Source: Candidatus Brocadiia bacterium
Lineage (GTDB): Bacteria; Planctomycetota; Brocadiia; CAIUPP01
Reading direction: 5' to 3'
Assembly (NCBI GenBank): GCA_050015075.1
Contig: JBEKCB010000007.1
Coordinates: 109,747 to 173,746 of the forward strand
DNA: 64,000 bases
The notes under the pieces were generated by a model. That model was not told the DNA's origin. It saw nothing but the letters and a program-made list of their open reading frames with translations, and searched no databases. Shown here one piece after another: positions 1-61,600 of this stretch. Both the position numbers and the translations under genes were made by a program. Each line of letters opens with the position of its first letter. Position 1 is the stretch's first letter.

Positions 1-216
1 CTCGTCCTCGAATAGCCGTAACGAGCGGCCGAAAAACGACCGAGGCGAGCGCGCGCCCAACGCTCCGCGCAAAATTCCGGTTGCGGGACTTGACTCGCAG
101 TGTCGGGCGGCGGTACATTCGAATAGAGTTGGGGCGGAGGCATGCGGGCGAATTTCAGCAACTGGGGTTGCCGGATTCCCGAATGAAGGGGCCCATTGAT
201 GGGAAGGATTCCTGCC

Positions 217-44481: not shown

Positions 44482-44491
44482 GCTGTTTTCC

Positions 44492-45246: not shown

Positions 45247-45366
45247 ATTCTACACCCGTTGAATGAAAAAGCAACTGAAATGTTACGTCCTGCGGCGAGA
45301 GGCGGCCATCATTGCCCTCCGAAAATGCGCCGGGCCGATTGACAGAATTACGGCTGCGTGTAGAAT
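45247..45366. promoter_or_regulatory. Divergent sigma70-like promoters
   Basis: Plus strand TTGACA(45339)-16 nt-TAGAAT; minus strand TTGCTT(45274)-16 nt-TAGAAT. Both contain GTGTAGAAT. Confidence 0.5.
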
Positions 45367-45404
45367 GGCGCAGGGCGAACGGCAACAGGAACGGGAAGGG
45401 TCCG

Positions 45405-46100
45405 ATGAAACCAGGATCGCGCGGCGCTTCGGCGGGTGCGGGCGGAAGCCGGCCCGAGCTGGAAAGTCTCGGTGAAGTCGGCATCCTCTTCGCCGACCTT
45501 TCCGGCTACACCCAGGTCGTCTATCAGTGCGTAGGCGATGAAGACCGGCTTCAGCGCCTGTCCATGGCGCTTTACCGGCTCTTCAATGCGCCCGGCCATG
45601 CGCATCCGGACATTTCCGTGGAAGGCTACGCCGGGGACGGCTTCCTGGCGTTCAGCCGCGGCCGGACGCCGGTCCGCACCATGTACGACTTCGCGCTGAC
45701 TTTGCACAGCCGTTTCGACGCGGAGACTCGGCCGCTGATGCTGAACCTGGGCTTTCGCGCCAGCGCGGCGCTGCGCACCGGGCTTCACATCGGGCGCGTC
45801 TGGCGCATGAAGTTGTCCGCAGAGCCGGAGCCGCCGCGCTATTCCAACATCTCCGACGCGATCAACGTGGCCAGCCGCGTGGTGGCCGGGCAGGTCTGCC
45901 GCCGGCGCGGCCTAGCCGTGACGCGCGACTGCTATCGCCGCCTGCTCTACGCCGGCCGCAAGGAAGTCCGCGAGCCGGACGAAGTCATCCAGGACCGCAA
46001 CCAGTATCCGGAGCCCATCGAGATCTATCACATCCGGCCGGAGGAGCATCAGCAGATCGTCACCCGCTCGGCCGGACAGGCGAAGAATCCGCCGGCGTGA
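45405..46100 (+). CDS. Class III nucleotidyl cyclase domain protein
   Basis: ILFADLSGYT, YAGDGFLA, RTGLHIG, DAINVASRV. Confidence 0.8.
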   Translation: MKPGSRGASAGAGGSRPELESLGEVGILFADLSGYTQVVYQCVGDEDRLQRLSMALYRLFNAPGHAHPDISVEGYAGDGFLAFSRGRTPVRTMYDFALTLHSRFDAETRPLMLNLGFRASAALRTGLHIGRVWRMKLSAEPEPPRYSNISDAINVASRVVAGQVCRRRGLAVTRDCYRRLLYAGRKEVREPDEVIQDRNQYPEPIEIYHIRPEEHQQIVTRSAGQAKNPPA

Positions 46101-46147
46101 GGCGTGCGCATTCGTTCTGAGACGTCCGCAGAGGTGAGGAGAGTGTG

Positions 46148-48436
46148 ATGGGACTGACGATCCGCTTCCAGGGCGGCGCGCGCGCCGGAGAAGTTCTCGA
46201 CTTCGGCGACCAGGTCGAGACCGTCGTCTTCGGCCGCGATGCCGACAGGTGCCAGGTGGTTTTTCCGCCGGAAGAGACGAAGGTCGGGCGCGAGCACTGC
46301 GCGCTCCGGCGCGTCCTGGGCCGCTACCGCCTGCAGCTCAACAAGGACAACCTCGTCCTGCTCGACGGCAAGCCGGCGATGGAAGACCAGGAACTCGGCG
46401 CGACGGCCGACCTGCAACTGGGGCCGGACGGGCCTCGGCTGATCGCCGAGACGACCGGGAAGGCCGGCCTGCTTCCGACGATGGACCAGGGGCGGCGCGC
46501 GGGCCAGGCGACGATGGTCCGCGATGCGGGCCGGACGGCCAGGAAGGGCCGGAACATCGCTCTTGCGGTGGCCGCGTTGCTCGTGATCCTCGGCGTCGTC
46601 GTCCTCACCGTGGCGCGGCGGCAGGAGGAGAAAATTCGCAGCGTCACCGAATTGACCCAGGCGGATAAGGCGCTGATCAACGACATGGCCGGCAAGCTCG
46701 CGACGGTCGCCGCCAAGTCCGAGGCGCTGCCGATGGCGCTGGCGAAAGCGCGGCCGTCGGTCTACATGGTCGTGCTGCGCTTCCAGCCCGAGGGGAAATC
46801 GTCCTACGAAGAGGTGCAGCTCGGCACGGCGTGGGTCATCGCCGACGGCGTGCTCGCCACCAACGCGCACGTCGCGGAGGTGTTCAACAACCTGGGCAAG
46901 ACAATGGAGGACCTCAAGCCGCTCGGCGTCCTCAAGGAGTACGTGGTCCGCTCGAACGCGCCTGAGCCGAAGACGCATCGCATCAAGTCCGTGCGCATTC
47001 ACCCCGGTTACGAGGAGTTCCAGAAGATCTGGGGCGAACTCAAGCCCGGCTACGGACAATCGCTCAGGACCCTGCGCATTGTGGACGCCGCCGGCCCGGC
47101 TTGCGACGTCGGGCTCCTGCAGGTGGACGAGGCGGACCAGGCCGGCCTGGCCGCGAAGCTGCCGGTCGCAACGCCGAAGGAACTCGGCGAGCTGCTCGCC
47201 GGCCGATCGGTCGGATACGTCGGTTACCCGGGCGAGAACCTGGCGCTCATCAGCCAGACGCATCCGAACCCCGTCACGCAGGTCGGCAGCATTACCGCCG
47301 TGACCGATTTTCTCGGCGTCAGCTCGAAGGACGGTCAACTGATCCAGAATTCGCTGCCGCTCGCCGGCGGCGCCAGCGGCAGTCCGGTCCTGAACGCGGA
47401 CGGACAGGTCATTGCCATCCTCAGCGCGGGCAACATGGTGGTGACGAGCGCGGGCCGGACTCCGTCGGCGGCCGGCATCAATTTCGCCCAGCGCGTTGAC
47501 CTGGTCACCGAACTGCTCGAGGGACGGGCCGCGAAAGCCCAGCCGGAACGCTCCGCCGCGTGGCGAAGGCAGATACCGGAGGTGTACGACACCGGGCTCG
47601 CCCTGCTGCACAAGGAACTGGTTCCTGAATACGTGAAGTTCCGGGAAGTCCAACTGGCCGGCGACGATCAGAACGTGGAAGTCCAGGCGCGGGAAATCTC
47701 CCACCAGGCCGGCAAGCTCACCGCATCCGCCGAAGCCGCCAATCCGGCGACGTATAAGCTGACGGCGACTCTTCCCTTGAACGCCGTGTGCCTGGTGGTG
47801 GTCGCCTCGAGCGACGACGCCTGCGATCTCGCCTTGAACGTGGTGGAAAAGGGCGGCGCCGCAACGGGCCAGGAGCATCCCGGACAGAAAATCCACGAGG
47901 AAGTTCCCTGGGCGAGCGTGACCCAGTTCGAAGTGCGCGACACGGAGCCGATCGAGATCACGGCCTCCGCCAGTTCGGCCAACGCGCCGGTGGAAGTGTA
48001 CGTGTACCAGCTCGAAAGGAAAGAGCCGACGCCGGAAAAGCGCCTTGGCAAGATCCTCGCCTCCTGGCAGAACGATCTCAAAGAGAACAAGGGCGGCGAA
48101 TTCACGACCGAGGAGGTGATCGCCCAGCAAGGCGAGTTAGGCGAACCGACCGCCGAATTGAAAACGGCGATCTACAAAATGGACCTGTCTATCGCCGCCG
48201 AGGGCCATTACATGGCGGTCGCCGCCGGATCGCCCGGCCAGAACGTCGCCATCCTCGTGGCTGCGGTCAACGGCGACGAGCGGACTGAGCTTGCGAAAGA
48301 CACGCGCGACCTTCCCTGCACCGCCTGCGCATTCGATGCGGACGGGAAGGTGAAGACCGAGATCTACGTCCTGGGCCAGACCGCCCGGACCAAGTTCAAC
48401 CTCTGGGTCTATCGAGCCGTGCCCAAGATGCCGTGA
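46148..48436 (+). CDS. FHA-TM-trypsin-like serine protease with C-terminal beta domains
   Basis: FGR...VGREHC (FHA), TM helix, TNAHV / DVGLL / GGASGSPV catalytic triad. Confidence 0.85.
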   Translation: MGLTIRFQGGARAGEVLDFGDQVETVVFGRDADRCQVVFPPEETKVGREHCALRRVLGRYRLQLNKDNLVLLDGKPAMEDQELGATADLQLGPDGPRLIAETTGKAGLLPTMDQGRRAGQATMVRDAGRTARKGRNIALAVAALLVILGVVVLTVARRQEEKIRSVTELTQADKALINDMAGKLATVAAKSEALPMALAKARPSVYMVVLRFQPEGKSSYEEVQLGTAWVIADGVLATNAHVAEVFNNLGKTMEDLKPLGVLKEYVVRSNAPEPKTHRIKSVRIHPGYEEFQKIWGELKPGYGQSLRTLRIVDAAGPACDVGLLQVDEADQAGLAAKLPVATPKELGELLAGRSVGYVGYPGENLALISQTHPNPVTQVGSITAVTDFLGVSSKDGQLIQNSLPLAGGASGSPVLNADGQVIAILSAGNMVVTSAGRTPSAAGINFAQRVDLVTELLEGRAAKAQPERSAAWRRQIPEVYDTGLALLHKELVPEYVKFREVQLAGDDQNVEVQAREISHQAGKLTASAEAANPATYKLTATLPLNAVCLVVVASSDDACDLALNVVEKGGAATGQEHPGQKIHEEVPWASVTQFEVRDTEPIEITASASSANAPVEVYVYQLERKEPTPEKRLGKILASWQNDLKENKGGEFTTEEVIAQQGELGEPTAELKTAIYKMDLSIAAEGHYMAVAAGSPGQNVAILVAAVNGDERTELAKDTRDLPCTACAFDADGKVKTEIYVLGQTARTKFNLWVYRAVPKMP

Positions 48437-48440
48437 GCCG

Positions 48441-51053
48441 ATGTCATGCCGGTGGTTGAGGAACCTGATGGACAACGGGCTTGCTTCCTGGTTCAGAATA
48501 TGGCACCCGCGGTATCGGGGCATTCTGGTTCAACTGGCCGTCGCCGCCGCGATTGCCGCCGCGCTCTTATACGTCCAGCAGGGTTTGCTCGACCTTCTGA
48601 CGCTGTCGCTGGCGTCCAACCCTGCGGCGCCCGCCGAGTCGGGCGAGCATGCGGACAAGGCGCTGACGGTCCTCTCGAATGATGCCGCCTCGCTGGGCCT
48701 CACGCCGGCATCGCTGCCGCTGCTCGTCCTGGGACTCTTCATCCTGGTGGCGGTCGTCGCGAGCGCAATAGACTACTGGAAAGTGCGCGTGACGGGCCGG
48801 CTGAGAGTCCGAAGCGAAGATGACCTGGAAGCCGAGATCCTCGCGCACCTGCTGCGGCAGGACGACGCGTTCTTCGCCCGCCATTCGCCCTCCGAGACGG
48901 TCAATCGCCTGGCGGTGGATGTGTACCGGACGACCGAAAACCGGCCGAACCTGATGCTCGCCGTGGCCTCGGTCGCCCTCATCGTCAGCAGCCTGGGCTA
49001 CTTTGTGCAGAAGGACTGGCGGCTGGCGGCGGTGGCTTTCGGAGGCTGCGTCGCGGGCGCCCTGTGGACCTTCCACATGACCAAGCGCGTCAAGGACATG
49101 GACGCCAGCTACCTCCGCTCCGACGACCGGGTCAAATCGCACTTCGAGGATTGCCTGAGAGCGTCTCCGGAGATCCAGGTCGGCGACCTCCATCGCAAGG
49201 TCCGCCGGCATTTTGAGGAGGTCCAGGAGGACCGCACGCAGACGTATCTGCGCTATGTGGGCCTCAACGCGGCGCTGAGCGTGGGCAGCACGGTGTGGTA
49301 CTTGCTGGCATTCATCGCCATGATCTTCGTCGCCCTGCACCTGCGAGGGAGCAGCGGCGAGAACTCGTCGCTGGCCCTGGTCCCGGTGGTGATCTGGGCG
49401 TTGCCGCGCCTGTTCAACAGCGCCTCGTCGCTGGTCTTCCTCAACCTGCAGTTCCAGCTCGCCCGGACCAGCATGAAGCGGCTGCTGGAATACGAGGCCC
49501 TCGCGTCGCCGCCGCCGGCGGGGCAGGCGCAGACGCGCGCCGGCGAGGAAATCGCTCGCGTGGAACCGATCCGCGCCGACCGGGTTACCTATCGGTACGC
49601 AGCCGCCGACGGCACGCAACAAGTCGGCCTGTCGGAGGTCAGCGCCACGTTCGTCCCCGGCCAGTGGACGGCGCTGGTGGGCACAGCCGGCTCGGGCAAG
49701 TCCACCTTGCTCAGGCTGCTGCTCCGGCGGGCCAAGCCGCATGAGGGCGAAATCTTTTACGGCGACCGGCCGCTTCAATCGCTTTCCGACCGGCAACTCG
49801 CCGATCTCCTATCCGTCATGCCCCAGTCGGTGGCGCTGCTGGATGCCGCGATTGGGGAGAACCTGCTGTTCGGCAGAGCCGCGCCCGCCGGCCGGACCTC
49901 GCCCGAGCTGACCGACGCGGACCTCGAAGTGGTGGAAAGCGCGGGCCTCGCAAAGGTCTGCCGGCTTAAAGCGCTCGACATGCTTCCGGAAAAGGAACGC
50001 GGTTGCGCGGAGTTGGCCGGAGGAATCGCGGAGACCCGGAACCGGCTTCGCGAGCGGCTGCGGAAGGAATGCGGCGCGGTCATTCTGCCGTTCGAGGAAG
50101 GCCGCGCGGACGCGAAACACTGGGTGCTCGAGCACCTGTTGAACGGGCGGTGCGACCGTGAAAAGGCCGCGCGGATCCTGCTGCATAAGACGCGCGCCGG
50201 CAGCTTGAAGGCGCTGCCCGGAACGCCGCTGGGCGTCGAACTCGTCCGCGCCGGGCGGGCGGTCCTGCAGCAAAACCGCCACCTGCTCCAGATCCCCAAC
50301 TTCCACGTCTACTGTCAACTGGCCCCGTCGGCGATTGACGAGAGGGTCTGGCAACTGCGGTCGTCCAGCGTCGCGCTCGCCGACGGCGCCGCGCTGTCAA
50401 CGGCGGAAACCCTGGCCTTCTGCGTGATCGCTTTGACGAGTTGCCCGTCCGAGTTCGCGGGCGCCGAAGGTTCCAGAGACTGGGGCAACCCGGACTTCAA
50501 GAACGAGTGCGCCGGGACGATCGCCGGGCTTAGAGAGATGCTCGGCGACGCCTGTAAGGGGTTCGACATCGGCGCGATTCATCCGAACCTGACCTGGCGC
50601 GAGAACCTCATCTTCGGCGTGGTGCAGTCGCAGAACGTCCGAACGCGCCGCCTGGCGGACGAGGCCGTCCTGAACTTCGTCGAGCAGGACGGGCTGCGGC
50701 AGGCGTTCACGCGGCTCGGGCTCGAATTCGGCATCGGCCGCCTCGGCGGCAACCTCTCGGGCGGGCAGCGGCAGCTCGTCGCCTTATGCCGCTCGCTCCT
50801 GCGGCGGACTCCGGTGCTCGTCCTCGACGAGCCGACCTCCGCCCTGGACCCGGCCAGTTGCTCCGCGGTCCTGGCGCTGCTTCACGCCTGGAAGATGAAC
50901 CGGATCCTCATCACGGTGAGTCATGACGTGGAGCTGATGCGGCATGCCGACGTCATCCAGGTGATGGATGGAGGCCGTTTGGTCGCGAAGGGTTCCTTCC
51001 CGGAATTGGAGGCGGGGTCCGACGTTTTCCGCAAGATCCTGCGACAGACATGA
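48441..51053 (+). CDS. ABC exporter (TMD plus NBD) with a large insertion inside the NBD
   Basis: TM domain, GTAGSGKS, MPQ Q-loop; LSGGQRQ, VLVLDEPT and VSH follow only after a long insert. Confidence 0.88.
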   Translation: MSCRWLRNLMDNGLASWFRIWHPRYRGILVQLAVAAAIAAALLYVQQGLLDLLTLSLASNPAAPAESGEHADKALTVLSNDAASLGLTPASLPLLVLGLFILVAVVASAIDYWKVRVTGRLRVRSEDDLEAEILAHLLRQDDAFFARHSPSETVNRLAVDVYRTTENRPNLMLAVASVALIVSSLGYFVQKDWRLAAVAFGGCVAGALWTFHMTKRVKDMDASYLRSDDRVKSHFEDCLRASPEIQVGDLHRKVRRHFEEVQEDRTQTYLRYVGLNAALSVGSTVWYLLAFIAMIFVALHLRGSSGENSSLALVPVVIWALPRLFNSASSLVFLNLQFQLARTSMKRLLEYEALASPPPAGQAQTRAGEEIARVEPIRADRVTYRYAAADGTQQVGLSEVSATFVPGQWTALVGTAGSGKSTLLRLLLRRAKPHEGEIFYGDRPLQSLSDRQLADLLSVMPQSVALLDAAIGENLLFGRAAPAGRTSPELTDADLEVVESAGLAKVCRLKALDMLPEKERGCAELAGGIAETRNRLRERLRKECGAVILPFEEGRADAKHWVLEHLLNGRCDREKAARILLHKTRAGSLKALPGTPLGVELVRAGRAVLQQNRHLLQIPNFHVYCQLAPSAIDERVWQLRSSSVALADGAALSTAETLAFCVIALTSCPSEFAGAEGSRDWGNPDFKNECAGTIAGLREMLGDACKGFDIGAIHPNLTWRENLIFGVVQSQNVRTRRLADEAVLNFVEQDGLRQAFTRLGLEFGIGRLGGNLSGGQRQLVALCRSLLRRTPVLVLDEPTSALDPASCSAVLALLHAWKMNRILITVSHDVELMRHADVIQVMDGGRLVAKGSFPELEAGSDVFRKILRQT

Positions 51054-51514
51054 ACACAACGGTCCTCAGCGTGGCCGAACGCATGCAGGCGCTCGGCAGA
51101 TGTCCCGCCTTCGCGCGGGTCCCGGCCGGCGACCTGAGCGTATTGGCGGAAATGGTCGAGACGGAGCGGCTCGCCGAGGGCGAAATCCTCTTCGAAACAG
51201 GCGAGCCGAGCACGAGCGTCTACGTGATCGCGGCCGGCGCGATGGGAGTCTGGCTTCCCGGCCGGCCCGAACCGGTGCGCAGGCTGGGCGCCGGCGACCT
51301 GCTGGGCGAATACGGGATGTTCTCGCGCCAGGGCCGCACCGCCACCGTCAAGGCTGAAACGCCGGCGGTGCTGCTCTCGCTGGACTACCCGCGCTTTCGC
51401 GCTTTCCTCGTGCAGTTTCCCGAGTCCGCGCTGGTGCTGCTGGAGATCGCCGTCCATCGTCTGACGGCGGCCGAAGCCGGCGACGGCGCCAATGGACGGG
51501 CCAGACATGAGTAG
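51050..51514 (+). CDS. Cyclic nucleotide-binding domain protein
   Basis: GEILFETGE, YVIAAG, GDLLGE, RTATVKA. ATGA-coupled to the ABC gene. Confidence 0.9.
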   Translation: MNTTVLSVAERMQALGRCPAFARVPAGDLSVLAEMVETERLAEGEILFETGEPSTSVYVIAAGAMGVWLPGRPEPVRRLGAGDLLGEYGMFSRQGRTATVKAETPAVLLSLDYPRFRAFLVQFPESALVLLEIAVHRLTAAEAGDGANGRARHE

Positions 51515-52187
51515 TTCGGAATCCATCCTTCAGACCTATCTCGGACTTCTTCCGGCTTCCCCGGAGAGCGGCGTTTTGCGCCTGCTGGTGCAACTGGGCA
51601 TCCAGGTCGTCGGCGCGGACGAGGGATCGCTGCTGGTGCTCGACGAGAAATCGCGTTCACTCGTCTTCGCCATGACCGCCGGCGACCGTGTCTCCGAAAA
51701 AACGCTCATGGGCCAGCGCGTGCCTCTGGGCAAGGGGATCACCGGCCTGGCGGCGGCCACGCACGAGGTGCAGATCGGCGCGCCGACCTACAAGGATATC
51801 CGGCAGACCCGCCGGCGCGGCCGCCCCGCGGGCGCGCCCGAGGCGGTGATCGCGGCGCCGATGCTCATCGGCGACACGCTCATCGGGGTCATCACCTGCG
51901 TCAGCTTCAAGAAGGGAAAGCGCTTCGGCGCTGACGACGCGCGGCTCTATGCGGGGCTCGCCTCCATCGCGGGAGTCGTGGTGGACCAGTGCAGGCGGTT
52001 GTCGGCCGCCGGCGCGGGCCGCGGCGCGCGGGCGTCGCTGAAAGCGTTGGGAGAAATCGGAACGGTCGAGCGGGAGATCGCGCAGTCCATCGCGCGACTG
52101 TCGCGGAAGCGCCCCGAGGCCTTGACGTGCGTCGCGCAGATTCTGAAGTCCGTCGAACGGATCTCTCTTTCCAGCGGCGGAGGATAA
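51507..52187 (+). CDS. GAF domain protein
   Basis: GSLLVLDEKSRSLVF, VPLGKGITG, IAAPMLIGDTLIGVI. Confidence 0.85.
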   Translation: MSSSESILQTYLGLLPASPESGVLRLLVQLGIQVVGADEGSLLVLDEKSRSLVFAMTAGDRVSEKTLMGQRVPLGKGITGLAAATHEVQIGAPTYKDIRQTRRRGRPAGAPEAVIAAPMLIGDTLIGVITCVSFKKGKRFGADDARLYAGLASIAGVVVDQCRRLSAAGAGRGARASLKALGEIGTVEREIAQSIARLSRKRPEALTCVAQILKSVERISLSSGGG

Positions 52188-52949
52188 GTGGCCAGATCGC
52201 GGGGATTGACGGCGGCGGTCCAGGTTCGGCCCGAGGCGCTCGGCAAGGTCAAGCTCAGGCCGGTTGAAGTGGCCATCCTCGACAGCGGGATTGACGCGGG
52301 CCACCCGGCGCTCCGCGGGCGGATCGTCGCGGCGTTCCGCGTGGAGGGCGGGCAGAGGAATCCCAAGGTCCGCCCGGCGCGGCGGAAGAACAATGACGAC
52401 TACGGCCACGGGACGGCGGTCGCCAGCATCATCGCGCGCATCGCTCCGAACGCGCGGCTGGTGGACGTCCGCGTCCTGGGGCCGGACAACCAGGGGTCCG
52501 GCGCGGCGCTGATCGAGGGGCTTCGCTTCGCCGTGGAACGCGGGTCGCGCATCATCAATATGAGCCTGGCCGCGACGGGCGAATTCGCCGCCGACCTGCA
52601 GGCCCTTTGCGAGACCGCGTATTACCAGAACCAGGTCGTCGTCGCGGCGAAAAGAAACATGCCGCTGGTGGACAACGGTTTCCCCGCGGAGTTCTCTTCC
52701 TGCATCGGCGTGGACAACCGCGCTTTTCCCTCGCCGTTCGTCTTCCGTTTCATGCCGGACCAGACCATCGAGTACGCCGCTCATGGAACCGCGGTCGCGG
52801 TCGCGGCCCCGGGCGGCGGCTACTCCACCAAGACCGGGACGAGCTTCGCCACTCCGACGATCACCGGGATCTGCGCCCGGATGCTGGGCGCTTACCCGGA
52901 TATGCGCCCGTTTGAGGTCAAGTCGCTGCTCAAGCTGTTCGCGCGGTGA
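52188..52949 (+). CDS. S8 subtilisin-family peptidase, no signal peptide
   Basis: ILDSGID, HGTAVA, GTSFATP catalytic triad. Confidence 0.92.
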   Translation: MARSRGLTAAVQVRPEALGKVKLRPVEVAILDSGIDAGHPALRGRIVAAFRVEGGQRNPKVRPARRKNNDDYGHGTAVASIIARIAPNARLVDVRVLGPDNQGSGAALIEGLRFAVERGSRIINMSLAATGEFAADLQALCETAYYQNQVVVAAKRNMPLVDNGFPAEFSSCIGVDNRAFPSPFVFRFMPDQTIEYAAHGTAVAVAAPGGGYSTKTGTSFATPTITGICARMLGAYPDMRPFEVKSLLKLFAR

Positions 52950-54172
52950 GTGGACGGACGCGGACGCGGGAACTCTTTTATCGGGACGCCGCCGTGGTCG
53001 CTGTGAACCGTTCGACTCGTTGCCGGTTCCTCTCTCGCACGCGGACCGTCATCCTTGCGGTCACGAACGACTGCAACATGGCCTGTTCGTACTGCTACCA
53101 GGACTCGCGGCTCATTCCGCGCGGAGGAAAGGCGCGACTCTTGCCCGCGGAGGTCGCCCGAGCGGCGCTTTCGGACATCGTCCGCACGACATCTTCCCGG
53201 CGCGTCGGCGTCATTTTTCACGGCGGGGAACCGACGCTGGCTCCGCAGGAATGGTATCGAGAGGTCATTGCGCCCGTTTCGCGGCTGGCCGCCAGGTCGG
53301 GCAAGAGCCTTCAGTTCCACATGCAGAGCAACGGGCAGTTGATTGACGATTCGTGGGCATCGTGTTTTCGCGCTCTGGCGATCAACGTCGGAATCAGCAC
53401 CGACGGCCCGGCCGAGGTGTCGCTGCCCTATCGGGCGGGCAGCGAGAACGCGGCGCGCGCGGTGCGCGTCATGCAGGCCTACGGACTGCGGCCCGGAGCG
53501 ATTGTGGTGGCCACGCCGCGCAACCTTCCGGTCATCGGCGATGTCATGAGCTATCTGGCCGATCTTCAGTTAGATGGTTTTCATCTCCTGCCATGGCTCG
53601 CCTTTGGACGTTCTCACGACGCCTCCGACGCCGCCTATCGGCAGATGCTCCTCGCCGGCTACATCCAGGTCGCCGAGACGCTCCTCGCAAATCCGGGCTA
53701 TCCGGTCGAGGCGCGCCTGGCTCTCTACGTTTCGCGATTTGTCGGAAAGCCGACGAGTTCGATCAAGGCCACCGGTTGTCAGAGCCTCAGAAAGCCTTGC
53801 GGCAGGCAACTGATCTACTTAGACGAAACGGGCGGCATCTATCCCTGTCAATCGCTCCATTCGGACGCCTTGGAATTCGGCCGGGCCACAGCGAATGGAA
53901 TCAGGTCGTGCACGCGGCCGGTTTTGCCTGAGGCGAGCCCGATGGCTGAGCGTCATCGCATCCGTTGCGCCCTGTGCGCGGCCGGCAGGATCTGCACTTA
54001 TGGTTGCGCTGCCGACGACGGTTCTGAGGCCGGACAGTGGCGCTGTGAATTGGCGCAAGGACTTTATGAGTACTTCCTGGCGAATACATCTCGCGCCGCG
54101 CGGCTGCACGATATCCTAAGTGAATCGCGAAACTACCGCCGGACTCGAGTCTGTAAGGACCAGGTCGCATGA
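52946..54172 (+). CDS. Radical SAM/SPASM-domain maturase 1
   Basis: CNMACSYC, FHGGEPTL, QSNG, GGIYPC, CALC...CTYGC. GTGA overlap with the S8 gene. Confidence 0.88.
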   Translation: MSGRTRTRELFYRDAAVVAVNRSTRCRFLSRTRTVILAVTNDCNMACSYCYQDSRLIPRGGKARLLPAEVARAALSDIVRTTSSRRVGVIFHGGEPTLAPQEWYREVIAPVSRLAARSGKSLQFHMQSNGQLIDDSWASCFRALAINVGISTDGPAEVSLPYRAGSENAARAVRVMQAYGLRPGAIVVATPRNLPVIGDVMSYLADLQLDGFHLLPWLAFGRSHDASDAAYRQMLLAGYIQVAETLLANPGYPVEARLALYVSRFVGKPTSSIKATGCQSLRKPCGRQLIYLDETGGIYPCQSLHSDALEFGRATANGIRSCTRPVLPEASPMAERHRIRCALCAAGRICTYGCAADDGSEAGQWRCELAQGLYEYFLANTSRAARLHDILSESRNYRRTRVCKDQVA

Positions 54173-54360
54173 AAATAAGAATCAAGGCCTTGGATGGTTC
54201 TTTCTATGAAGTCGAGGAATCGCGGCTTCAGGCGTATAAAGTTCCCGCCGAGGAAGTCGCGGGGCAGTTGCAACACTTGAAGGGTTCCTTGCGGCTGGAC
54301 CTGGCCAGGGAGTTAGATGCGCCGGTACCCAAACGGCCGCGGCGGCGCAAGAGGAGGTGA
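54169..54360 (+). CDS. Small peptide with leader-like N-terminus and EVAGQ motif; possibly a degenerate precursor
   Basis: AAGGA RBS, ATGA overlap, DGSFYEV..., EEVAGQ. Confidence 0.55.
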   Translation: MKIRIKALDGSFYEVEESRLQAYKVPAEEVAGQLQHLKGSLRLDLARELDAPVPKRPRRRKRR

Positions 54361-54434
54361 TCGCTTAGAAGCCATGCGAAGAAGAGGGTGGTGAGTGCGG
54401 TCCATGTACGATCATTTGGTTAGGAAGACAGGCC

Positions 54435-54620
54435 ATGTCATTGATTACGGTGGATGCGAAAGGCAACGTGTACCTCGTCCCCGATAATGTGCTGAAGAAG
54501 TATTGCAGGAAAGTCGGCCGGATCAGCGACAAGAAGCGCAAGGGAACCGCCCAGGTCGAAGGCCAGGACTGGTTGATTTGCCAGGCCTGGCTGAACTGTT
54601 CAGGAACCAAGGGCGGCTGA
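54435..54620 (+). CDS. Candidate RiPP precursor peptide A
   Basis: MSLITVDAKGNVYLVP...QVEGQ-DWLICQAWLNCSGTKGG. Paralog of 55855..56052. Confidence 0.8.
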   Translation: MSLITVDAKGNVYLVPDNVLKKYCRKVGRISDKKRKGTAQVEGQDWLICQAWLNCSGTKGG

Positions 54621-54640
54621 TTTCCACTGCGGAAGAACTC

Positions 54641-55819
54641 ATGGTAGCGCAGATCGCTGCGACGTCCGGAGCGTACATGAAGAAGGTGAACTGGCTTCAC
54701 CTCCGGGCGCACGACTCCTGCAACCTGTCCTGCTCGTACTGTGTCATGTCGGCGCGCCGCGGGCGCCCCGGCGCGGACGCCATGACGGCGGAACAGGCCG
54801 TTGAGATCCTGCGGCTGCTCCTGGAGCATTCGTCCGCGCCCAGGATTACGGTTGAGATTTCCGGCGGCGAGCCCCTTCTTTGCGGCAGCCGCTGGATCGC
54901 CGCCGTGTGCGGCGGGCTCCGCGCGATGGAGAGGCAGTACGCGAAGCGGCTCGATCTTTGGATCACCACGAACGGCACTCTCCTGACCGAGGAAATCATT
55001 GCGATCATCCGGGACTGCAAGGCCAAGCTTTCCGTGGGCGTGGACGCCCCGGCAGGCGTCTCGGGCGAGGTCAAGACGCTCGATCGCCGGGTCCGCAAGG
55101 GAATCGAGCTGCTCCAGAAGCTGTACGCGACGCCGGGCATCAATGCCGTGGCCACGCTGCCGGCGATGCGCCACGTCACGCGATTCATGGACGAGCTGAA
55201 GCAGATGAACATCCGAGTGTTCCGGCTCACCGCCGTCAACAGCCGGGGCCGCGCGTCGTCGGCGCCGGCGCTGCTCCCCACGGCCAAGGACGCCCTCGCC
55301 TGCACGATGCGGCTAATCCGGTACATGGACCGCTGCGGTTTCTCCATCGTTGAGGCGAGCGCGCTGGATCGCGTCTACCGTTATATGGGAGACGTGTACG
55401 AACCTAACTTCTGCAACGCTCCCGCTTGTCCGGCGGGGAGCGGATTCCTGGCGGTGGACGCAAACGGCGACGTCTATCCCTGCGGGAATGAAACGCGAGA
55501 CCGTTTCATCATGGGCAACATCTACGACGGCTTCGACGGACCGCGCAGCCGACGCGTTCTCTCCGCCTACCACGGCGAGCTTGCCCCGTTTGTCCGTTGC
55601 GTGTATTGTAAGGCCGGCCGGATATGCCATTATGGGTGTCCGGGATGCCTGCATGAAGGAGACACGAGGCATTTCGACGCGGAATGCCAATTGACGCAGA
55701 TGCTGTTCGAGCGTTTCGAGCGAAACCGCGTGGCGATTGGGGAGATATATCGAAAGGCAAAAAGCAACGCGCCGGCGTGCGGCCGCAAACAATCTTCGGG
55801 CGTTCAAGGTGAACGCTAG
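54641..55819 (+). CDS. Radical SAM/SPASM-domain maturase 2 (start may be 54677)
   Basis: CNLSCSYC, SGGEPLL, TTNG, CNAPACPAG...GDVYPC, CVYC...CHYGCP. Confidence 0.9.
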   Translation: MVAQIAATSGAYMKKVNWLHLRAHDSCNLSCSYCVMSARRGRPGADAMTAEQAVEILRLLLEHSSAPRITVEISGGEPLLCGSRWIAAVCGGLRAMERQYAKRLDLWITTNGTLLTEEIIAIIRDCKAKLSVGVDAPAGVSGEVKTLDRRVRKGIELLQKLYATPGINAVATLPAMRHVTRFMDELKQMNIRVFRLTAVNSRGRASSAPALLPTAKDALACTMRLIRYMDRCGFSIVEASALDRVYRYMGDVYEPNFCNAPACPAGSGFLAVDANGDVYPCGNETRDRFIMGNIYDGFDGPRSRRVLSAYHGELAPFVRCVYCKAGRICHYGCPGCLHEGDTRHFDAECQLTQMLFERFERNRVAIGEIYRKAKSNAPACGRKQSSGVQGER

Positions 55820-55854
55820 AGCTTCCTTAGAAAACTCGAGAAAGGAGACGTACA

Positions 55855-56052
55855 ATGGCCGGTGTCATTGCCGTTGATCGAAAAGGCATTGTCTATCTGA
55901 TTCCGCAGGCCATCCTGACCAAGCATTGTAAGAAAGTCGGGTGGCTGAGCGAGAAGAAACGGAAAGTGCCGGGCAGAGGTCAAGTCCAGGGACAGGGAGA
56001 TGATTGGCTCGCCTGCCAGGCATGGGTTAATTGTTCATTGCATCCTAAATGA
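55855..56052 (+). CDS. Candidate RiPP precursor peptide B
   Basis: AAGGAG RBS. MAGVIAVDRKGIVYLIP...QVQGQ-GDDWLACQAWVNCSLHPK. ATGA-coupled to the B12-rSAM gene. Confidence 0.82.
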   Translation: MAGVIAVDRKGIVYLIPQAILTKHCKKVGWLSEKKRKVPGRGQVQGQGDDWLACQAWVNCSLHPK

Positions 56053-58181
56053 GGATCGCCATACTTTCGCCGCCGCTGGGGTCACTCACTCAAGCGCCTT
56101 TGAGTCTGCCGAGCCTGACGGCTTTTCTTCGTGAATCAGGACATCAGGTGGCTCAGCACGACTTGGGTATCAAGTGCATTGACCTGATGCTCACGCCCGA
56201 TTACCTTGACAAGTTGCGCGCGCGCATCAACGCCCGGGCCTCTCACCGGCGTACTCCCCGCGGATTGTCGCCTAAGGATAAGACGCGATGGCGGATAGCG
56301 GTCACCTCGGCCCTGGCCGCGGGTGATTGGACGATCGCCCATATTGAAGAGGCCAAGCGCGTCATGCGCTCTCCGGAGCGTTTTTACCGCAGGGATGAGT
56401 ATGTAGGCGCGAAGAATGCCATTCGGAACGCCCTGCAAATTGTGACGGCGGCATATTTCCCTCTGGAATTAATCTTCAACGAAATCCGATACCCGTTTGT
56501 CGCCTCATTAGATGCAATCCTGGATATGGCGCCTGACAGGAGTCCTTTTACTGAGCCGATGCGGTCGGCCGTGGCCGCAACTCTGCCCCAGCTGCCGCCT
56601 TTAGTCGGCATTTCAATCACGTTCTACGACCAACTGGTCGCCGGGTTTCAACTGGCCGGAATGATCAAGAGGAGGAAGCCGGAAACACACGTCGTGTTAG
56701 GTGGGGCGGCCGTCGCCGCTTCAGAGGAAGCGATACGACGGCACGCGCGGGCGTTCGAGCGCGTGGACAGTTATGTCTTTGGTGAAGGCGAAGCCGGTCT
56801 GCTTGCGTTGGCGACGCTCCTGGAAGAACGCGAGCCGCGCGTCGCGATGCCGGGGAATGTGTACATTTCGCCTGAACTGCCTGCGAGCCGGTACGAGTCC
56901 GGCGACAAGGACCACTGTCAACGAATGAACGGCGACACGTTTCCAACTCCCGACTACACCGGGCTGAATGTTCAGGACTACCTGACGCCTGAGCCCATGT
57001 TCTCATTGTCGAACGCGCGGGGATGTTATTGGCGCAAGTGCGCATTCTGTAATGTCTCCCTGAGCTTCATGCGGGAGTTCCGGCAACGGAGCATGAAACG
57101 TGTTCAACAGGATATAGCGACACTTGTTTCCCGGCACAAAGCTAAGTGGATTTTCTTTGCCGATGATTGCGTGCCGCCTTCACGTTGCCGGGAACTGGCC
57201 GATTACTTAAGAGGGAAGAAACGCCCCGTTTATTGGGTCACGGAATGCCGTTTCGAGAAAGCGTTTTCGCCGAGGCTGCTGCGTTCGATGTATCGGGGCG
57301 GTTGCCGGCAGCTCACGTTCGGAAACGAGTCGGCGAACCAGCGCGTGCTCGACCGCATGCGGAAGGGAACCCGGGCTCCATGGAACAGAAAACTCATCCG
57401 GGCCGCGGCCAGAGCCGGCATCGCGGTGCATCTCCAGAACTTTTTGGGATTTCCCGGCGAGCGCGCGAGCGAAGCTCGAGAGACGGTGGCACTGCTTCTG
57501 GATGAACGCAAGCATATCGCTTCCACGGCGCTGGGATGCTTCCACGTCACGGCCGATTCTCCGGTCCATCGCTTTCCTTCGCAATTCGGTGTGACGAAGC
57601 TCAGGAGAGTCCAGAAAGAAGGCCTGGTGCCGGCGTTCGCTTTCTCATGCCGTACCGGAATGGGGCCGGAACACGTGAAGGAGATGTGGAACAATGCCGA
57701 GGCCGCGCTGAGGCGCGCTTACCCGCACTGGGATGCTTTTCTCGACGGGGTGTTAGGTTTGCACGCCGTTTTGTATATGGCGCGATTCCAGTGCAACAAG
57801 TTCGACGACATCTTCGGTGTGAGGCGAATGCCGCGGAATATCCTTTCGCTCTACCCGCGGGCGCATCCGGGCGTGGTGTGCAGTTTTTCCGCCGGCCGGA
57901 AACCGATGTGCGCGGTCTTCAGCACGCGCACCGGCGGCTGCATGCTCGTTCAGGGAGCATTGGCCGCCGTGTTGAAGGTGGCGGACGGCTCGCACAGCGT
58001 CGCTTCCCTGCTCGGGGCCGCGGCGTCCGTCAAATCGTTGAGAGGGAATCGAACTCGCATCGAGTGTGGCACGACGGTCGTCCTGGGGCTCATGGATTTG
58101 TACCGGAGCGGGTTGATTGACTTGAAGGCCGGCGCTTTTGAAACGCATGAAGCGAGGCCGCAGAAAGGAGGCGGAACTTAG
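56049..58181 (+). CDS. B12-dependent radical SAM enzyme with C-terminal RRE/PqqD-like domain
   Basis: VGISITF, VVLGG, GEGE, RGCYWRKCAFC, FADD, FGNES, GFPGE; C-terminal AVFSTRTG...VADGSHSVASLL...LYRSGLI. Confidence 0.88.
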   Translation: MRIAILSPPLGSLTQAPLSLPSLTAFLRESGHQVAQHDLGIKCIDLMLTPDYLDKLRARINARASHRRTPRGLSPKDKTRWRIAVTSALAAGDWTIAHIEEAKRVMRSPERFYRRDEYVGAKNAIRNALQIVTAAYFPLELIFNEIRYPFVASLDAILDMAPDRSPFTEPMRSAVAATLPQLPPLVGISITFYDQLVAGFQLAGMIKRRKPETHVVLGGAAVAASEEAIRRHARAFERVDSYVFGEGEAGLLALATLLEEREPRVAMPGNVYISPELPASRYESGDKDHCQRMNGDTFPTPDYTGLNVQDYLTPEPMFSLSNARGCYWRKCAFCNVSLSFMREFRQRSMKRVQQDIATLVSRHKAKWIFFADDCVPPSRCRELADYLRGKKRPVYWVTECRFEKAFSPRLLRSMYRGGCRQLTFGNESANQRVLDRMRKGTRAPWNRKLIRAAARAGIAVHLQNFLGFPGERASEARETVALLLDERKHIASTALGCFHVTADSPVHRFPSQFGVTKLRRVQKEGLVPAFAFSCRTGMGPEHVKEMWNNAEAALRRAYPHWDAFLDGVLGLHAVLYMARFQCNKFDDIFGVRRMPRNILSLYPRAHPGVVCSFSAGRKPMCAVFSTRTGGCMLVQGALAAVLKVADGSHSVASLLGAAASVKSLRGNRTRIECGTTVVLGLMDLYRSGLIDLKAGAFETHEARPQKGGGT

Positions 58182-58258
58182 GGGAAACGGCAATCGCACC
58201 GTGCGCAATTCTGTGGTCAGTGTTCCTGCAATCAATGCTTTTGTGAAAGGATCGCACG

Positions 58259-58438
58259 ATGGCCGAAACGATGATCATCGCCATCATCAAGGGGAAGAAG
58301 CTGAGCGCGAAAGAGCAGGCCGCCGTCCGCAAGAGAGTCCAGAAGGCGTTGGCCGGCACGTCTGAGGTGGCCGGGCAGGACGGCGAAACCTGCGTGGGCG
58401 TCAGTGTCGCGCCCGTGACGGTTTCTTATTGCAAGTGA
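58259..58438 (+). CDS. Candidate RiPP precursor peptide C (59 aa, missing from the ORF track)
   Basis: AAGGA RBS. MAETMIIAIIKGKKLSAKEQAAVRKRVQKALAGTSEVAGQ-DGETCVGVSVAPVTVSYCK. Confidence 0.7.
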   Translation: MAETMIIAIIKGKKLSAKEQAAVRKRVQKALAGTSEVAGQDGETCVGVSVAPVTVSYCK

Positions 58439-58458
58439 GCCAATTCGCGAGCCGATGT

Positions 58459-58512
58459 CATGGCGGCTGGGATGGAAGGCGCCGATAAGGCGACCGAAGT
58501 CCAGCCGCCGTG
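58459..58512 (+). terminator. Stem-loop closing the peptide/rSAM cassette
   Basis: CATGGCGGCTGG...CCAGCCGCCGTG. No clear U-tract. Confidence 0.35.
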
Positions 58513-58624
58513 CAGGCTAAACGATTTGTACGACCGGCGGCTGAAACTTACAATATTCGCCGCGCGGGATTCGCAAATCCGGGGCGCGCAGCGGGGAAAC
58601 TTAGGTCCTAATTAGAGAGCGGAA

Positions 58625-61600
58625 ATGGAGACGCAGTTCCATCGCGAGTACCTGTTGCGTCTTCCGCTGCCGGTGGCGCAATTGTATAGTCGGGCGTACA
58701 ACGCCAAGGACGCGCGAAGCCGGCACGATAACTGCTACTACCTGTTCGAAGTGCTCATCAAGCTCTCCGCGTGCCCGTTGACGGCGTGTTATGTGCAGGA
58801 AATACGCCGCGGCGGGCAGCGCGTCGCCAAGCTGGATCAGCTTCTTCTGCAACTGGCGTTTCCGTCGCTGGGGCAGTGGATGGCGATCCTGCGGGAGACC
58901 GCGCGGCATTACGGCTCGCTGCCGGATGCGGCGTCGCATCCGCTGGGGCAGATGTGGGGCCAGTTGAACCGTCCGCAGCATGATCCTTCCGCCCTCGCCG
59001 CGCTCTACCGCCGGATCAAGAACGGGCCGGACGGCCAGCCCGCGGGCGACAAGAGTTGCACGATCCTCCAATTGTTCGAGGCGCTGGTGCAGTACCGCAA
59101 TGGCGTGGTCGGGCACGGAGCGGGGCGCTTCGAATCGTTTTACGCCAATGACATGGGGCCGCTGCTCTTCCCGGCGGTGAATGAGATACTGGCGGAAGGA
59201 GTATTCTCGCCTCTGGGTCCGGCCGGGGCGCGGCTGGCGTACCTGACGGAGTTGCGCGCGGTGTCGGAGGACCGGTTCGAGCTGGGCATGCGGGAGCTGA
59301 CCGGCGCGCAGGGCGAGCGGATGGCGTCGCTGGCGCTGGAGGCGGGCGAGGCGGCGGGGCTGGCGCCGAACCGCGCGGCGGTGCTGTGGCCGGGATTGCG
59401 CGCGCCGCTGCGGCTGGACCCGCTGATGATCTTTCGGGAGAGCGAGGTCGCCGACGAAGTGCTGCTGCTCAACGGTGAGCGCGGCGGCCGGCAGGTGGAG
59501 TACCTGAGCTACACGACGGGTCGGACGGAGCGGACGAAGGACACGGCCGCGGAGCTGGCGGCCCTGCTCTCCATCCTGGCCGGCAAGGAGGTCACGGAGT
59601 CGAAGCTCCAGCAGTTGGCGGAGTTGAGCCGCGCCGCGGTCCCTTCCGTCGAGGCGCTGACGGAGCCGGCCGCGCCGGTGCGGCGGCAGTTGGGCGACTA
59701 CGAGATCCTGGCGGAGATCGGCCGGGGCGGAATGGGCGTGGTGTATCTCGCGCGCCAGTTGTCGCTCGGCCGCCTGGTGGCGTTGAAGACGCTTCCGGCC
59801 GACCTGGCGGGAGACGAGGTGGCGCTGGCGCGGTTCCGGCGGGAGATGCGCGCGCTGTCCCGGTGCGATCATCCGAACATCGTCAAGCTCCTCGACAGCG
59901 GCGTATTCGCGGACGGCCAGGTTTACTACACGATGGAGTACGTCGCAGGCTGCGACCTGGACCAGGTGTGGCACGAACTGTCTCGGTCGGGGTTGGCGCG
60001 GGAGTCGTCGAAGCTGGGGAACAGCACGTTTGCGCGAGCGGTGATCTCGGCGAGCGGGCGGCGGCGCAAGGAAGTGGAATCGCGCTGCGCGGCCTCCGGC
60101 GCGGGCGAGCCGAGACCCGCCGCGGACCAGGAGCCGCCTGCGGTGCCGAAGCTGCCGCTGCCGCCGTTGCCTCCTCTGCCGGAAGTGAGCGAGGACTCGG
60201 GCGGCTACGTGCGAAAGGTGGTGGCGCTGATCCGGGACGCGGCGCTGGCGCTACAGGCGGTGCATGACCAGGGCATCGTGCACCGCGATATCAGCCCGGC
60301 GAACCTGATGCTGACGCCGGACGGATCGCGCGTGGTGTTGATGGACTTCGGGCTGGTGAAGGGGCAGAACCTGTCGCGCTCGCTGACGGAAAAGGGCGGG
60401 TTCGTCGGCAAGCTCCGCTACGCCGCGCCGGAGCAACTGGCCGCGGCCATGCTGAAGGTGGGTCCTCAGGCGGACGTCCGAGGGCTGGGCGTGACGCTCT
60501 GGGAACTGCTGACGCGCCACCGGCTCTTCGAGGAGGCGCACGACGAACGGCAGTTGACGACGCTGGTGCATGAGAAGGACGTGCCGCGCCTTCGGCAGAT
60601 GGATTCGAACTTCGACCGGGACCTGGAGGCGATCGTCGCGCGGGCCACGGAACGGAACGCCGGCGACCGCATCGAGTCGGCCGGGCGGCTGGCGGAATAT
60701 TTGCAGCTTTACCTGGACGGGAAGCCGCTCCCGATCCGCACGCCGACGCTGCGGGAGATGGCCTGGCGCTGGAGCCGGGCGCATAAGCCGCTTGTGGGCG
60801 CGGCGGCGGTGGTGCTGGTCATAGCCGCGGCGGGCCTGGTCTGGTGGTGGCGCTTGCCCGGGACGCTGAGCCTGGACGTGTCGCCCGCCGACGCGCAGAT
60901 AGAAATCGCCGGCCGGACCATCCAGCCGGGTGAAATGCCTCTCCAGATGAAGCTCCCGGCGGGCGTTTACCAGGTGCGCATCCGCAAAGACGGCTTTGCG
61001 GACGAACAGCGCGAAGTCGCCGTGCTGCGCGGCGGTTTCAAGTCACTGCCGCGTGTGTCGCTCATACCTTATCGGGGCACGCTGGGCGTGCAGGCGTGGC
61101 CGCCGGGCACTACGATCGAATTCAACGGCGTGGACTACGCGGCGCCCATCAAGGAGCTTTCCGTTGACACGGGCGTCTACGACCTGCGCGCCCGGGCGGA
61201 CGAATGCTTTGACGCGCTTCACACGGTCCGGATCAATCGCGATCAGCGGACCGAGGACCGGTTCTCGCTCGAACGCGGCTTCCGGTGGAAAGAGCCCTAC
61301 ACCTCGCCGGCCATTCAGAGCGGGGTAGTGATCGTTCCCGGCCCGAAGCCCGGCGACCTCGCAGCTATCGTGCATAACGAAATCGGCCAGATCGTTTTCC
61401 TGTCCGCGGCCAGTGGAGAGCTCGTGGAGAGCATCCCGACGCCGGCCGGCAACATGCGGACATTCACGCAGCTCGACCTGGGCGGAGATGTCGGCAAGGT
61501 GATCGTATCGGGCTTCGAGGACGAGACGGCCGGGCCCAGCGTGCTCGCGATTGGGGCCCATTGGCCGGCAAAAACGCTGTGGGAGTGGCAGGGACCTGCC

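Follow-up and report, generated by a model that had tools for sequence, protein, structure and literature searches.

Paralogous precursor genes and a divergent pair of radical SAM/SPASM maturases in a peat Brocadiia bacterium: candidates for a RiPP with mixed cross-links

We analysed a stretch of 64,000 nucleotides (the window) from Candidatus Brocadiia bacterium (GenBank assembly GCA_050015075.1, contig JBEKCB010000007.1, positions 109,747 to 173,746 of the forward strand), which holds two short genes that we consider to be precursors of RiPPs, peptides that are synthesised ribosomally and then modified post-translationally. On the plus strand, a radical S-adenosylmethionine (SAM) enzyme with a SPASM domain (maturase 1, 52946..54172, 408 residues) is followed by a protein of 63 residues (orf63, 54169..54360), the start of which overlaps the maturase 1 stop codon, by the precursor gene A1 (54435..54620, 61 residues), by a second radical SAM/SPASM enzyme (maturase 2, 54641..55819, 392 residues) that begins 20 nucleotides after A1, and by the precursor gene A2 (55855..56052, 65 residues), whose stop codon overlaps the start of a gene for a B12-binding radical SAM enzyme. 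A1 has a leader of about 44 residues that ends in QVEGQ and is followed by the core DWLICQAWLNCSGTKGG; the leader of A2 is paralogous to it and precedes the core (G)DDWLACQAWVNCSLHPK. Shine-Dalgarno-like sequences (AGGAAG and AAGGAG) are found 7-13 nucleotides 5' of the A1 and A2 starts, and the genes from 48441 to 58181 overlap or abut in the manner of an operon. An earlier note, made without database searches, had described the precursors and referred to two SPASM enzymes. Both open reading frames (ORFs) are present where it placed them. It did not mention the 63-residue gene, the gene for the B12-binding enzyme or what may be a third precursor.

The two precursor proteins are 60% identical (35/58 positions, BLASTP E 3e-23), and the shared leader pattern put forward in that note (VD-x-KG-x-VYL-x-P-x3-L-x-K-x-C-x-KVG-x2-S-x-KKRK) coincides with the invariant columns of their pairwise alignment. 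A codon-level alignment of the DNA matches at only 111 of 180 bases (62%). Synonymous differences are saturated (31.3 over 39.5 sites, 0.79), whereas non-synonymous differences amount to 0.27 (37.7 over 140.5 sites), which places the peptide sequence under purifying selection and agrees with the note's reading of diverged DNA and retained residues as a sign of selection. The two copies share the core residues D, W, C, Q, A, W, N, C and S, several of them by way of altered codons, and the C-terminal four to five residues are wholly different. Relative to a sister species, A1 is 98% identical, with eight synonymous and one non-synonymous codon changes; the corresponding numbers for A2 are nine and seven. 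A back-translated leader pattern matches twice in the window and not once in 100 shuffles. A1 and A2 are real, selected paralogous precursor genes, and we regard both the genes and the selection acting on them as established.

A sigma-70-like site (TAGAAA-17-TACAAT, 9/12 positions, 55828-55856, plus strand) ends one base after the start of A2. It is the sole promoter-like site between 47500 and 59500, where shuffled sequences hold 1.8 on average, and is only a hint at separate transcription of a precursor. Terminator-like sites number 11 against 9.8 in shuffles, and neither the promoter nor the terminator count exceeds chance. An Rfam scan of 42000-64000 gave no match.

With a two-sequence profile of A1 and A2, HMMER was run exhaustively over 1.84 billion representatives and returned 15 proteins at E <= 1e-3, of which ten are small and precursor-like. 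Two long tandem-repeat proteins were discarded as family members, and three further matches (P0009, P0012 and P0015, E 6e-9 to 4e-4) are beta-propeller proteins with SBBP/NHL domains in Pfam that were pulled in by the precursor profile. The leader motif I-x-V-D-x-K-G-N-V-Y-L-x-P itself (54435-54480 in A1, 55855-55905 in A2) resembles the consensus of an SBBP/NHL propeller blade. The ten small relatives include P0014, a fragment of 33 residues that runs out of frame past the leader motif. Encoded on a contig of 321,215 bases, it begins like A1 and after V-L-K-K switches to the alternative frame that the window has upstream of maturase 2; this points to a frameshift in an A1 homologue or to a sequencing error in that assembly. 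Neither A1 and A2 nor the other small ORFs match any Pfam or NCBIfam model, and a word-index homologue search with A2 recovered only A2 itself. A looser pattern drawn from the family alignment hit 600 and 599 stretches in genome and metagenome collections, none of which was confirmed as a relative; the likeness of the leader motif to propeller blades swamped these scans. We found no publication on the family, although supplementary lists of radical SAM RiPP surveys could already contain it and subscription journals were mostly outside the search. By these profile searches, A1 and A2 belong to a rare and unannotated precursor family.

Conservation within this family is established from an alignment of 11 sequences. 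The leader positions D7, G10 and Y13 are invariant, as are W46, C49, W52 and C55 of the core, and D45 is nearly so, the arrangement D-x3-C being present in ten of the 11 members and Q replacing D in one. Each aligned core contains exactly two Cys, and the residue at position -3 of these Cys is W in 21 of 22 cases and H in the remaining one. The earlier note had described a tandem W-x-x-C repeat and had named its loss in homologues as grounds for giving up the idea; with W or H at -3 of both core Cys in 11/11 members, the repeat is kept across the family. The residue before the last Cys is N or D in all 11 sequences, and both residues between W46 and C49 are variable. The core comes in two forms. 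The short form, as in the window, reads D-W-x-x-C-x-x-W-x-N-C with a Cys spacing of C-x5-C, and the long form reads D-W-x-x-C-Y-x-W-I-(N/D)-x4-5-W-x-(N/D)-C-P ahead of a tail rich in Lys, with a Cys spacing of C-x12-13-C. Long forms contain two aromatic-x-N/D motifs, which are accompanied by the same enzyme set, and the number of Trp in the conserved core ranges from two to three. The leader of about 44 residues consists of a hairpin-like motif (I-x-V-D-x-x-G-x-x-Y-L-x-P), a short helix-like stretch with K-[HY]-C-K-K at its end, and a basic linker. In the A1/A2 subgroup the leader ends in V-x-G-Q, and the conserved 12-residue core (D-W-x-x-C-x-x-W-x-N-C-S) is followed by a short variable tail. 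In all six short-form members, G-Q precedes (D)W by zero to two residues and is a candidate cleavage site; it is absent from the long forms.

That both maturases belong to the radical SAM/SPASM superfamily is likewise established. Maturase 1 has CxxxCxxC at residue 43, GGEP at 93 and CxxCx5Cx3C at 341; in maturase 2, which matches the Radical_SAM and SPASM models of Pfam, these motifs are at 27, 75 and 320, and the full seven-Cys SPASM motif is present in both. The start of maturase 2 at 54641 was chosen because it is the same Met with which its orthologue at another locus (L022, see below) begins, and leaves 26 residues before CxxxCxxC. With this motif so near the N-terminus, neither enzyme has room for an N-terminal RiPP recognition element (RRE) domain. 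The two proteins are only 26% identical to each other, and close relatives of maturase 1 are few: eight at 57-100% identity, after which the next come at 37% and 24% among 8000 candidates scored.

How do these enzymes relate to characterised maturases? DynA is a cyclophane former that cross-links dynobactin, and it heads the NCBIfam ranking of maturase 1 with 110.1 bits (cut-off 450), followed by AmcB (105.4, cut-off 425) and anSME (100.1). Other cyclophane models score lower on maturase 1 (GrrM/OscB 74.7 bits, cut-off 310; YhhB 66.4, cut-off 445; FxsB 56.4, cut-off 370; XyeB 51.9, cut-off 450), as do DarW (66.8, cut-off 650) and DarE (58.8, cut-off 650) and the sactipeptide models StsB (54, cut-off 625) and RumMC (41.1, cut-off 720). 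The thioether formers PapB and QhpD reach 93 and 79 bits on the same protein. For maturase 2, the order begins with PapB (100.8 bits, cut-off 340), QhpD (82.9, cut-off 453), the SCIFF maturase (72.2, cut-off 425) and CcpM (69), and DynA and AmcB stand at 61 and 47 bits; its L022 orthologue scores similarly (PapB 97.4, SCIFF maturase 70.4). These preferences recur, DynA/AmcB being best in all four maturase 1 orthologues (the window and three others) and PapB/QhpD in both maturase 2 orthologues. In sequence searches of the PDB, maturase 1 matched anSME at 6.5e-14, ChlB (a triceptide synthase) at 1.2e-12 and CteB at 3.4e-10; with maturase 2, CteB came first (1.2e-13) and ChlB only at 3e-6. An AlphaFold2 model of maturase 1 (mean predicted local distance difference test score, pLDDT, 72.8) was matched by Foldseek to anSME (1.8e-15), ChlB (2.9e-13) and CteB (5e-13). 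Going by these scores, neither maturase belongs to a characterised or curated family; maturase 1 appears to lean to cyclophane-type relatives and maturase 2 to thioether-type relatives.

The small protein encoded by orf63 comprises a conserved domain of 48 residues and a basic tail. It lies between maturase 1 and a precursor at every locus read, and is present at L025, L022 and L023. Its relatives form 12 clusters (59-97% identical over the alignment), and its conservation exceeds that of the precursors, an alignment of 13 sequences having 24 invariant columns. An AlphaFold2 model (pLDDT 76) predicts a beta-hairpin, then two helices, one short and one long, ahead of the basic tail. There is no Pfam or NCBIfam match to orf63; structural comparison with the ESM Atlas gave template modelling (TM) scores of at most 0.51 without a usable feature match, Foldseek against the PDB gave nothing at E <= 0.001, and the best Z in the VIA wide comparison was 3.2. 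Both orf63 and the leader begin with a hairpin-like D-G-x-x-Y, but the idea that orf63 is a leader paralogue lacking a core is not supported by the profile-profile comparison (probability 1.3%). Among 401 genomes of the phylum, the orf63 profile finds its own genome and one other match (E 2.5e-4) inside a frame of 773 residues with a stop, which we take as noise. Our guess is that orf63 is an accessory factor that handles the leader or bridges the two maturases.

Searching public collections with a specific back-translated leader pattern yielded four loci (L022-L025), from which the synteny of the group is established. L024 is identical to the window, and L025, from the sister species, has 92% DNA identity and keeps the window's gene order between the ABC gene and orf59 (both described below). 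L022 is arranged as maturase 1 (76% protein identity), an orf63 homologue, a single precursor of the long form (P0005) and maturase 2 (75%), and L023 is a short, diverged locus like L022 that shares the order maturase 1, orf63, precursor, maturase 2. From these loci, the conserved unit is the two SPASM enzymes together with orf63 and at least one precursor. Because L022 keeps both maturases beside a single precursor, both are presumably needed for one peptide. Five maturase 1 matches and five orf63 matches come from equal-sized longest contigs (321215, 673703, 22098, 93985 and 11718), and two precursor clusters share equal contig sizes (1256 and 911) with orf63 matches; we read these equal sizes as a probable co-location of maturase 1, orf63 and precursor relatives.

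The occurrence of the unit is sporadic. Across 61 relatives, the precursor profile detects the own genome and the one further species in the genus (2/61); the other two genera within the family and 57 more genomes from the class and order gave none; among 401 genomes of the phylum it finds the own genome only, all other matches having E >= 0.03. The module genes have a GC content of 0.52-0.64 (precursors 0.52-0.55) against about 0.67-0.70 in the flanks. The dip, to 0.58-0.64, spans 53000-59000, from maturase 1 through orf59, and leaves the protease, exporter and regulator genes outside, so that on base composition the core module looks as if it had been inserted into a resident gene run. At L022, an integrase-core (rve_3) transposase fragment (183-497, minus strand) lies directly after maturase 2, and a PadR regulator and a MacB/FtsX-type permease of 910 residues lie on the other side; the module DNA is nevertheless 78-80% identical to that of the window. 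Sporadic occurrence, low GC content, the transposase fragment and this identity despite different neighbours together point to horizontal transfer of the module. Among public sequencing runs, 24 listed ones contain the region 52946-58438 (23 labelled peat metagenome and one wetland metagenome), and 16 of the 24 include half or more of the sampled words. Contigs from four peat runs show A1 and A2 without differences, and variants are confined to two short contigs of low identity inside maturase 2.

Several genes of the surrounding run suggest candidate roles in processing and export. Directly upstream of maturase 1 is a small S8 (subtilisin-type) protease (52188..52949, plus strand, 253 residues; Pfam Peptidase_S8, 9.4e-26), a candidate leader peptidase, with D/H/S triad motifs, no obvious signal peptide and QhpE as best NCBIfam model (97.8 bits, cut-off 165). 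An apparent fusion of S8 and radical SAM domains in a protein of 586 residues (P0032) is taken as a gene-calling artefact: the maturase 1 frame of L025 is merely open upstream and overlaps the S8 gene in another frame. An ATP-binding cassette (ABC) exporter (48441..51053, plus strand, 870 residues; Pfam ABC_membrane and ABC_tran) is the candidate exporter of the product, with NCBIfam matches to MsbA and NHLP-bacteriocin ABC models below their cut-offs. Two Pfam ABC_tran stretches were noted in its ATPase (best 397-489), NCBIfam placing a second block at about 720-870; an insert of some 230-270 residues seems to interrupt the domain. Between exporter and protease lie a gene for a cyclic nucleotide (cNMP)-binding protein (51050-51514, plus strand; Pfam cNMP_binding, 2.4e-16) and, overlapping it, one for a GAF protein (51492-52187, plus strand; Pfam GAF_2, 4.7e-10). 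Both are candidate regulators of export or processing, and the pair (51050..52187) weakly matches the bacteriocin-type transport-associated protein model TIGR03896. At the head of the same-strand run are a cyclase-domain protein (45312-46100, plus strand; Pfam Guanylate_cyc, 2.1e-06) and a trypsin-like peptidase (46145-48436, plus strand, 763 residues; Pfam Trypsin_2, 3.2e-14), whose membership in the cluster is uncertain. The combination of cyclase, peptidase, cNMP and GAF genes beside an ABC exporter suggests cyclic-nucleotide control of export or processing. Just upstream of the run, on the minus strand, is a second B12-binding radical SAM protein (43006-44562, 518 residues).

Downstream of A2, the B12-binding radical SAM enzyme (56049..58181, plus strand, 710 residues; Pfam B12-binding and Radical_SAM) is a candidate C-methyltransferase. 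It scores 137.6 bits with the RiPP C-methyltransferase model TIGR03975, below the cut-off of 281.85; L025 has a copy with 91% identity, and L022 has none. Directly after it, orf59 (58259..58438, plus strand) is a possible third, unrelated precursor that reads ...EVAGQ / DGETCVGVSVAPVTVSYCK. Its leader looks helical up to E-V-A-G-Q, the junction V-x-G-Q-D is the same as in A1 and A2, and its core is rich in Val and flanked by two Cys. Relative to the sister species, orf59 has five synonymous and one non-synonymous codon changes over 45 codons, and the genome has one copy of it. The B12 enzyme may act on orf59 as a substrate of its own.

How might two divergent maturases act on one short core? 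In our preferred reading, to which we assign a probability of about 0.45, A1 and A2 are precursors of a new radical SAM RiPP that acquires mixed C-C and C-S cross-links before its leader is removed and an ABC transporter exports it. We infer the chemistry, the cleavage site and export from motifs and relatives. We envision that the leader guides both SPASM enzymes onto the same core, with orf63 as an obligatory accessory. Maturase 1 would form an aromatic-to-C-beta C-C cyclophane on aromatic-x-(N/D), here Trp52-Asn54, and would act twice on long forms. Triceptides are defined by aromatic1-X2-X3 motifs in which His is included as an aromatic residue (PMC11499958), and the earlier note's recognition of W-x-N as a triceptide motif is upheld by the three-residue cyclophane at W-V-N that is proven in xenorceptide A2, a product with three cyclophanes (bioRxiv 10.1101/2024.12.16.628070). 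Maturase 2 would close one or two Cys thioethers. PapB joins Cys-S to the C-beta of Asp in CX3D with flexible spacing (PMC9413430), and the most probable acceptor for C49 would be Asp45 (D-x3-C49), with Asn or Gln as alternatives. The B12 radical SAM enzyme would possibly add C-methyl groups to one of the peptides. Finally, the QhpE-like S8 protease might cut the leader near G-Q. Such a step has a counterpart in the maturation of quinohaemoprotein amine dehydrogenase (QHNDH), where QhpD installs thioethers, the subtilisin QhpE cleaves the leader and the ABC protein QhpF exports the product (PMC7876137).

The closest known systems share some features with this scheme and differ in others. Triceptide maturases (XyeB, ChlB, HaaB, HtkB and those of the xenorceptides) and DynA are, like maturase 1, SPASM enzymes without an RRE; the aromatic-x-X3 motif of triceptides is found in the A1/A2 family (W-L-N, W-V-N, with His for Trp in one member), and DynA, AmcB and ChlB are the best maturase 1 matches. 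Maturase 1 nonetheless falls below the cut-offs of all curated cyclophane families, including the DarE and DynA equivalog models of darobactin and dynobactin (bamabactins; dynobactin sequence in PMC10125368), and the A1/A2 family adds two invariant Cys, a second enzyme of thioether type, an unrelated leader and the 63-residue partner. Ranthipeptide systems (PapA/PapB, SCIFF/CteB) supply the best maturase 2 matches (PapB, QhpD, SCIFF maturase, CteB), and an Asp stands four residues from a Cys in the A1/A2 core, though in the order D-x3-C rather than C-x3-D. Maturase 2 scores below the PapB and SCIFF cut-offs and has only 26 residues ahead of CxxxCxxC, and the core has two Cys rather than six, is rich in Trp and is accompanied by a second enzyme. 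The QhpC/QhpD/QhpE/QhpF system shares a thioether-forming radical SAM enzyme, a cytoplasmic subtilisin-type peptidase, an efflux ABC protein and a Trp/Cys polypeptide with a leader (PMC7876137), but the window precursors have 61-65 residues and a 12-residue core, and the QhpD and QhpE equivalog cut-offs are not reached. Thuricin CD operons also combine two precursors (TrnA/TrnB) with two radical SAM enzymes (TrnC/TrnD; PMC12093266); in contrast, L022 has two enzymes and one precursor, the A1/A2 cores are rich in W, C and N, and sactipeptide models (StsB, RumMC) score low on maturase 1. The B12 enzyme has B12-binding and Radical_SAM domains and scores below the subfamily cut-off of proteusin-type C-methyltransferases (TIGR03975).

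A number of observations weigh against the mixed cross-link proposal. The maturase scores are 3-6 fold under curated cut-offs (at best 110/450 for DynA and 101/340 for PapB), and the gap between DynA (110) and PapB (93) on maturase 1 is narrow; with so small a gap, the division of chemistry between the enzymes is weakly based. The earlier note had assigned one chemistry to each SPASM enzyme: the different leanings (DynA/AmcB versus PapB/QhpD) favour that view, whereas the distance of all scores from their cut-offs and a competing pair of the thuricin CD kind speak against it. In the core, D-x3-C has the reverse order of the CX3D motif of PapB, D is replaced by Q in one member, and P0016 has W-K-A at its middle motif. 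The S8, ABC and B12 radical SAM genes do not adjoin the module at L022, so their role is either host-specific or coincidental. Synteny was read at three kinds of locus, the contexts of P0007, P0008, P0010, P0011, P0013 and P0016 lying outside, and none of the 24 listed runs with the region is an RNA run.

The alternative that survives best, although still unlikely, is a peptide with thioethers only, produced by a cooperating SPASM pair like TrnC/TrnD, in which Cys would be joined to Asp45, Asn54 or another residue and Trp would serve recognition or activity. Each locus read has two core Cys and two enzymes, while Trp varies from two to three, and the PapB and QhpD scores on maturase 1 fit the same idea. 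Asn is a known thioether acceptor, Cys-S being joined to Asn C-beta by NxxcB and to Asn C-alpha by QmpB (PMC11851443); by analogy, the core N/D could accept a thioether instead of a cyclophane. What counts against thioethers alone is that maturase 1 consistently exceeds maturase 2 on DynA/AmcB and ChlB, that the two enzymes are so dissimilar, and that the invariant aromatic residue at -3 of Cys, with W-to-H tolerated, suits a reaction partner better than a recognition residue.

Direct Trp-Cys or His-Cys bonds, as proposed in the earlier note, might instead close both aromatic-x-x-C units, one by each enzyme or both by a single one. No feature of the core is as invariant as the twofold [WH]-x-x-C (22/22 units in 11 sequences), and the residues between W46 and C49 vary freely. 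We nevertheless hold it to be rather improbable: it leaves the invariant N/D before the last Cys and the near-invariant D before the first Trp unexplained, and no precedent among radical SAM/SPASM enzymes was found in the searched literature. A Cys-Trp bond does occur in the cofactor cysteine tryptophylquinone, which requires the flavoprotein QhpG (PMC7876137), and the Pfam annotations of the cluster ORFs include no flavoprotein. We are similarly doubtful of a more far-reaching version, in which the 12-residue core becomes a compact, possibly interlocked polycycle with at least one Trp/His-Cys bond and orf63 replaces the RRE as a stand-alone leader-handling partner.

Conceivably, the Cys residues could also form a disulfide (or bind metal) after export, next to a cyclophane, leaving epimerisation, hydroxylation or another modification to the second SPASM enzyme. 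The roughly constant Cys distance of short forms (C-x5-C) permits such pairing, and two aromatic-x-N/D motifs with the same enzymes in long forms fit an iterative synthase, as for xenorceptide A2 (bioRxiv 10.1101/2024.12.16.628070). The spacing widens to C-x12-13-C in long forms, however, and the nearest characterised relatives of maturase 2 (PapB, QhpD, SCIFF maturase, CcpM and CteB) all form Cys thioethers, which makes this variant quite improbable. Very improbable, finally, are small subunits or carriers of a protein-derived cofactor like QhpC, or small regulatory proteins, in place of a secreted product: the QhpD-like, QhpE-like and efflux ABC genes do mirror qhp maturation, and Trp and Cys are cofactor residues in QhpC, but TIGR03908 (QH_alpha) and TIGR03907 (QH_beta) have no match at E <= 0.01 in the 93.56%-complete own genome, the QhpD and QhpE scores are under their cut-offs, the cluster lacks a Pfam-annotated flavoprotein, and the sporadic, low-GC module resembles a mobile biosynthetic island.

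New cross-link chemistry in peptides comes mainly from radical SAM/SPASM enzymes, including that of the antibiotics darobactin, dynobactin and xenorceptide, which target BamA. The RiPP class as such is already known, and what is new here is the precursor family, the enzyme pair and the partner protein. Orphan clusters of this kind are common, and if the chemistry turned out to be an ordinary thioether or cyclophane, the locus would add one further orphan RiPP family to thousands. It is a clean locus, however, with a real chance of unusual chemistry, and a compact test case in that a 12-residue core is combined with two divergent co-retained maturases, a small and apparently obligatory partner, and short and long core variants that help to assign enzymes to motifs. 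Its source is uncultured peat Brocadiia, and probably another phylum too, lineages with almost no characterised natural products. There, the locus could reveal combined C-C and C-S cross-linking on one peptide, or a new type of bond.

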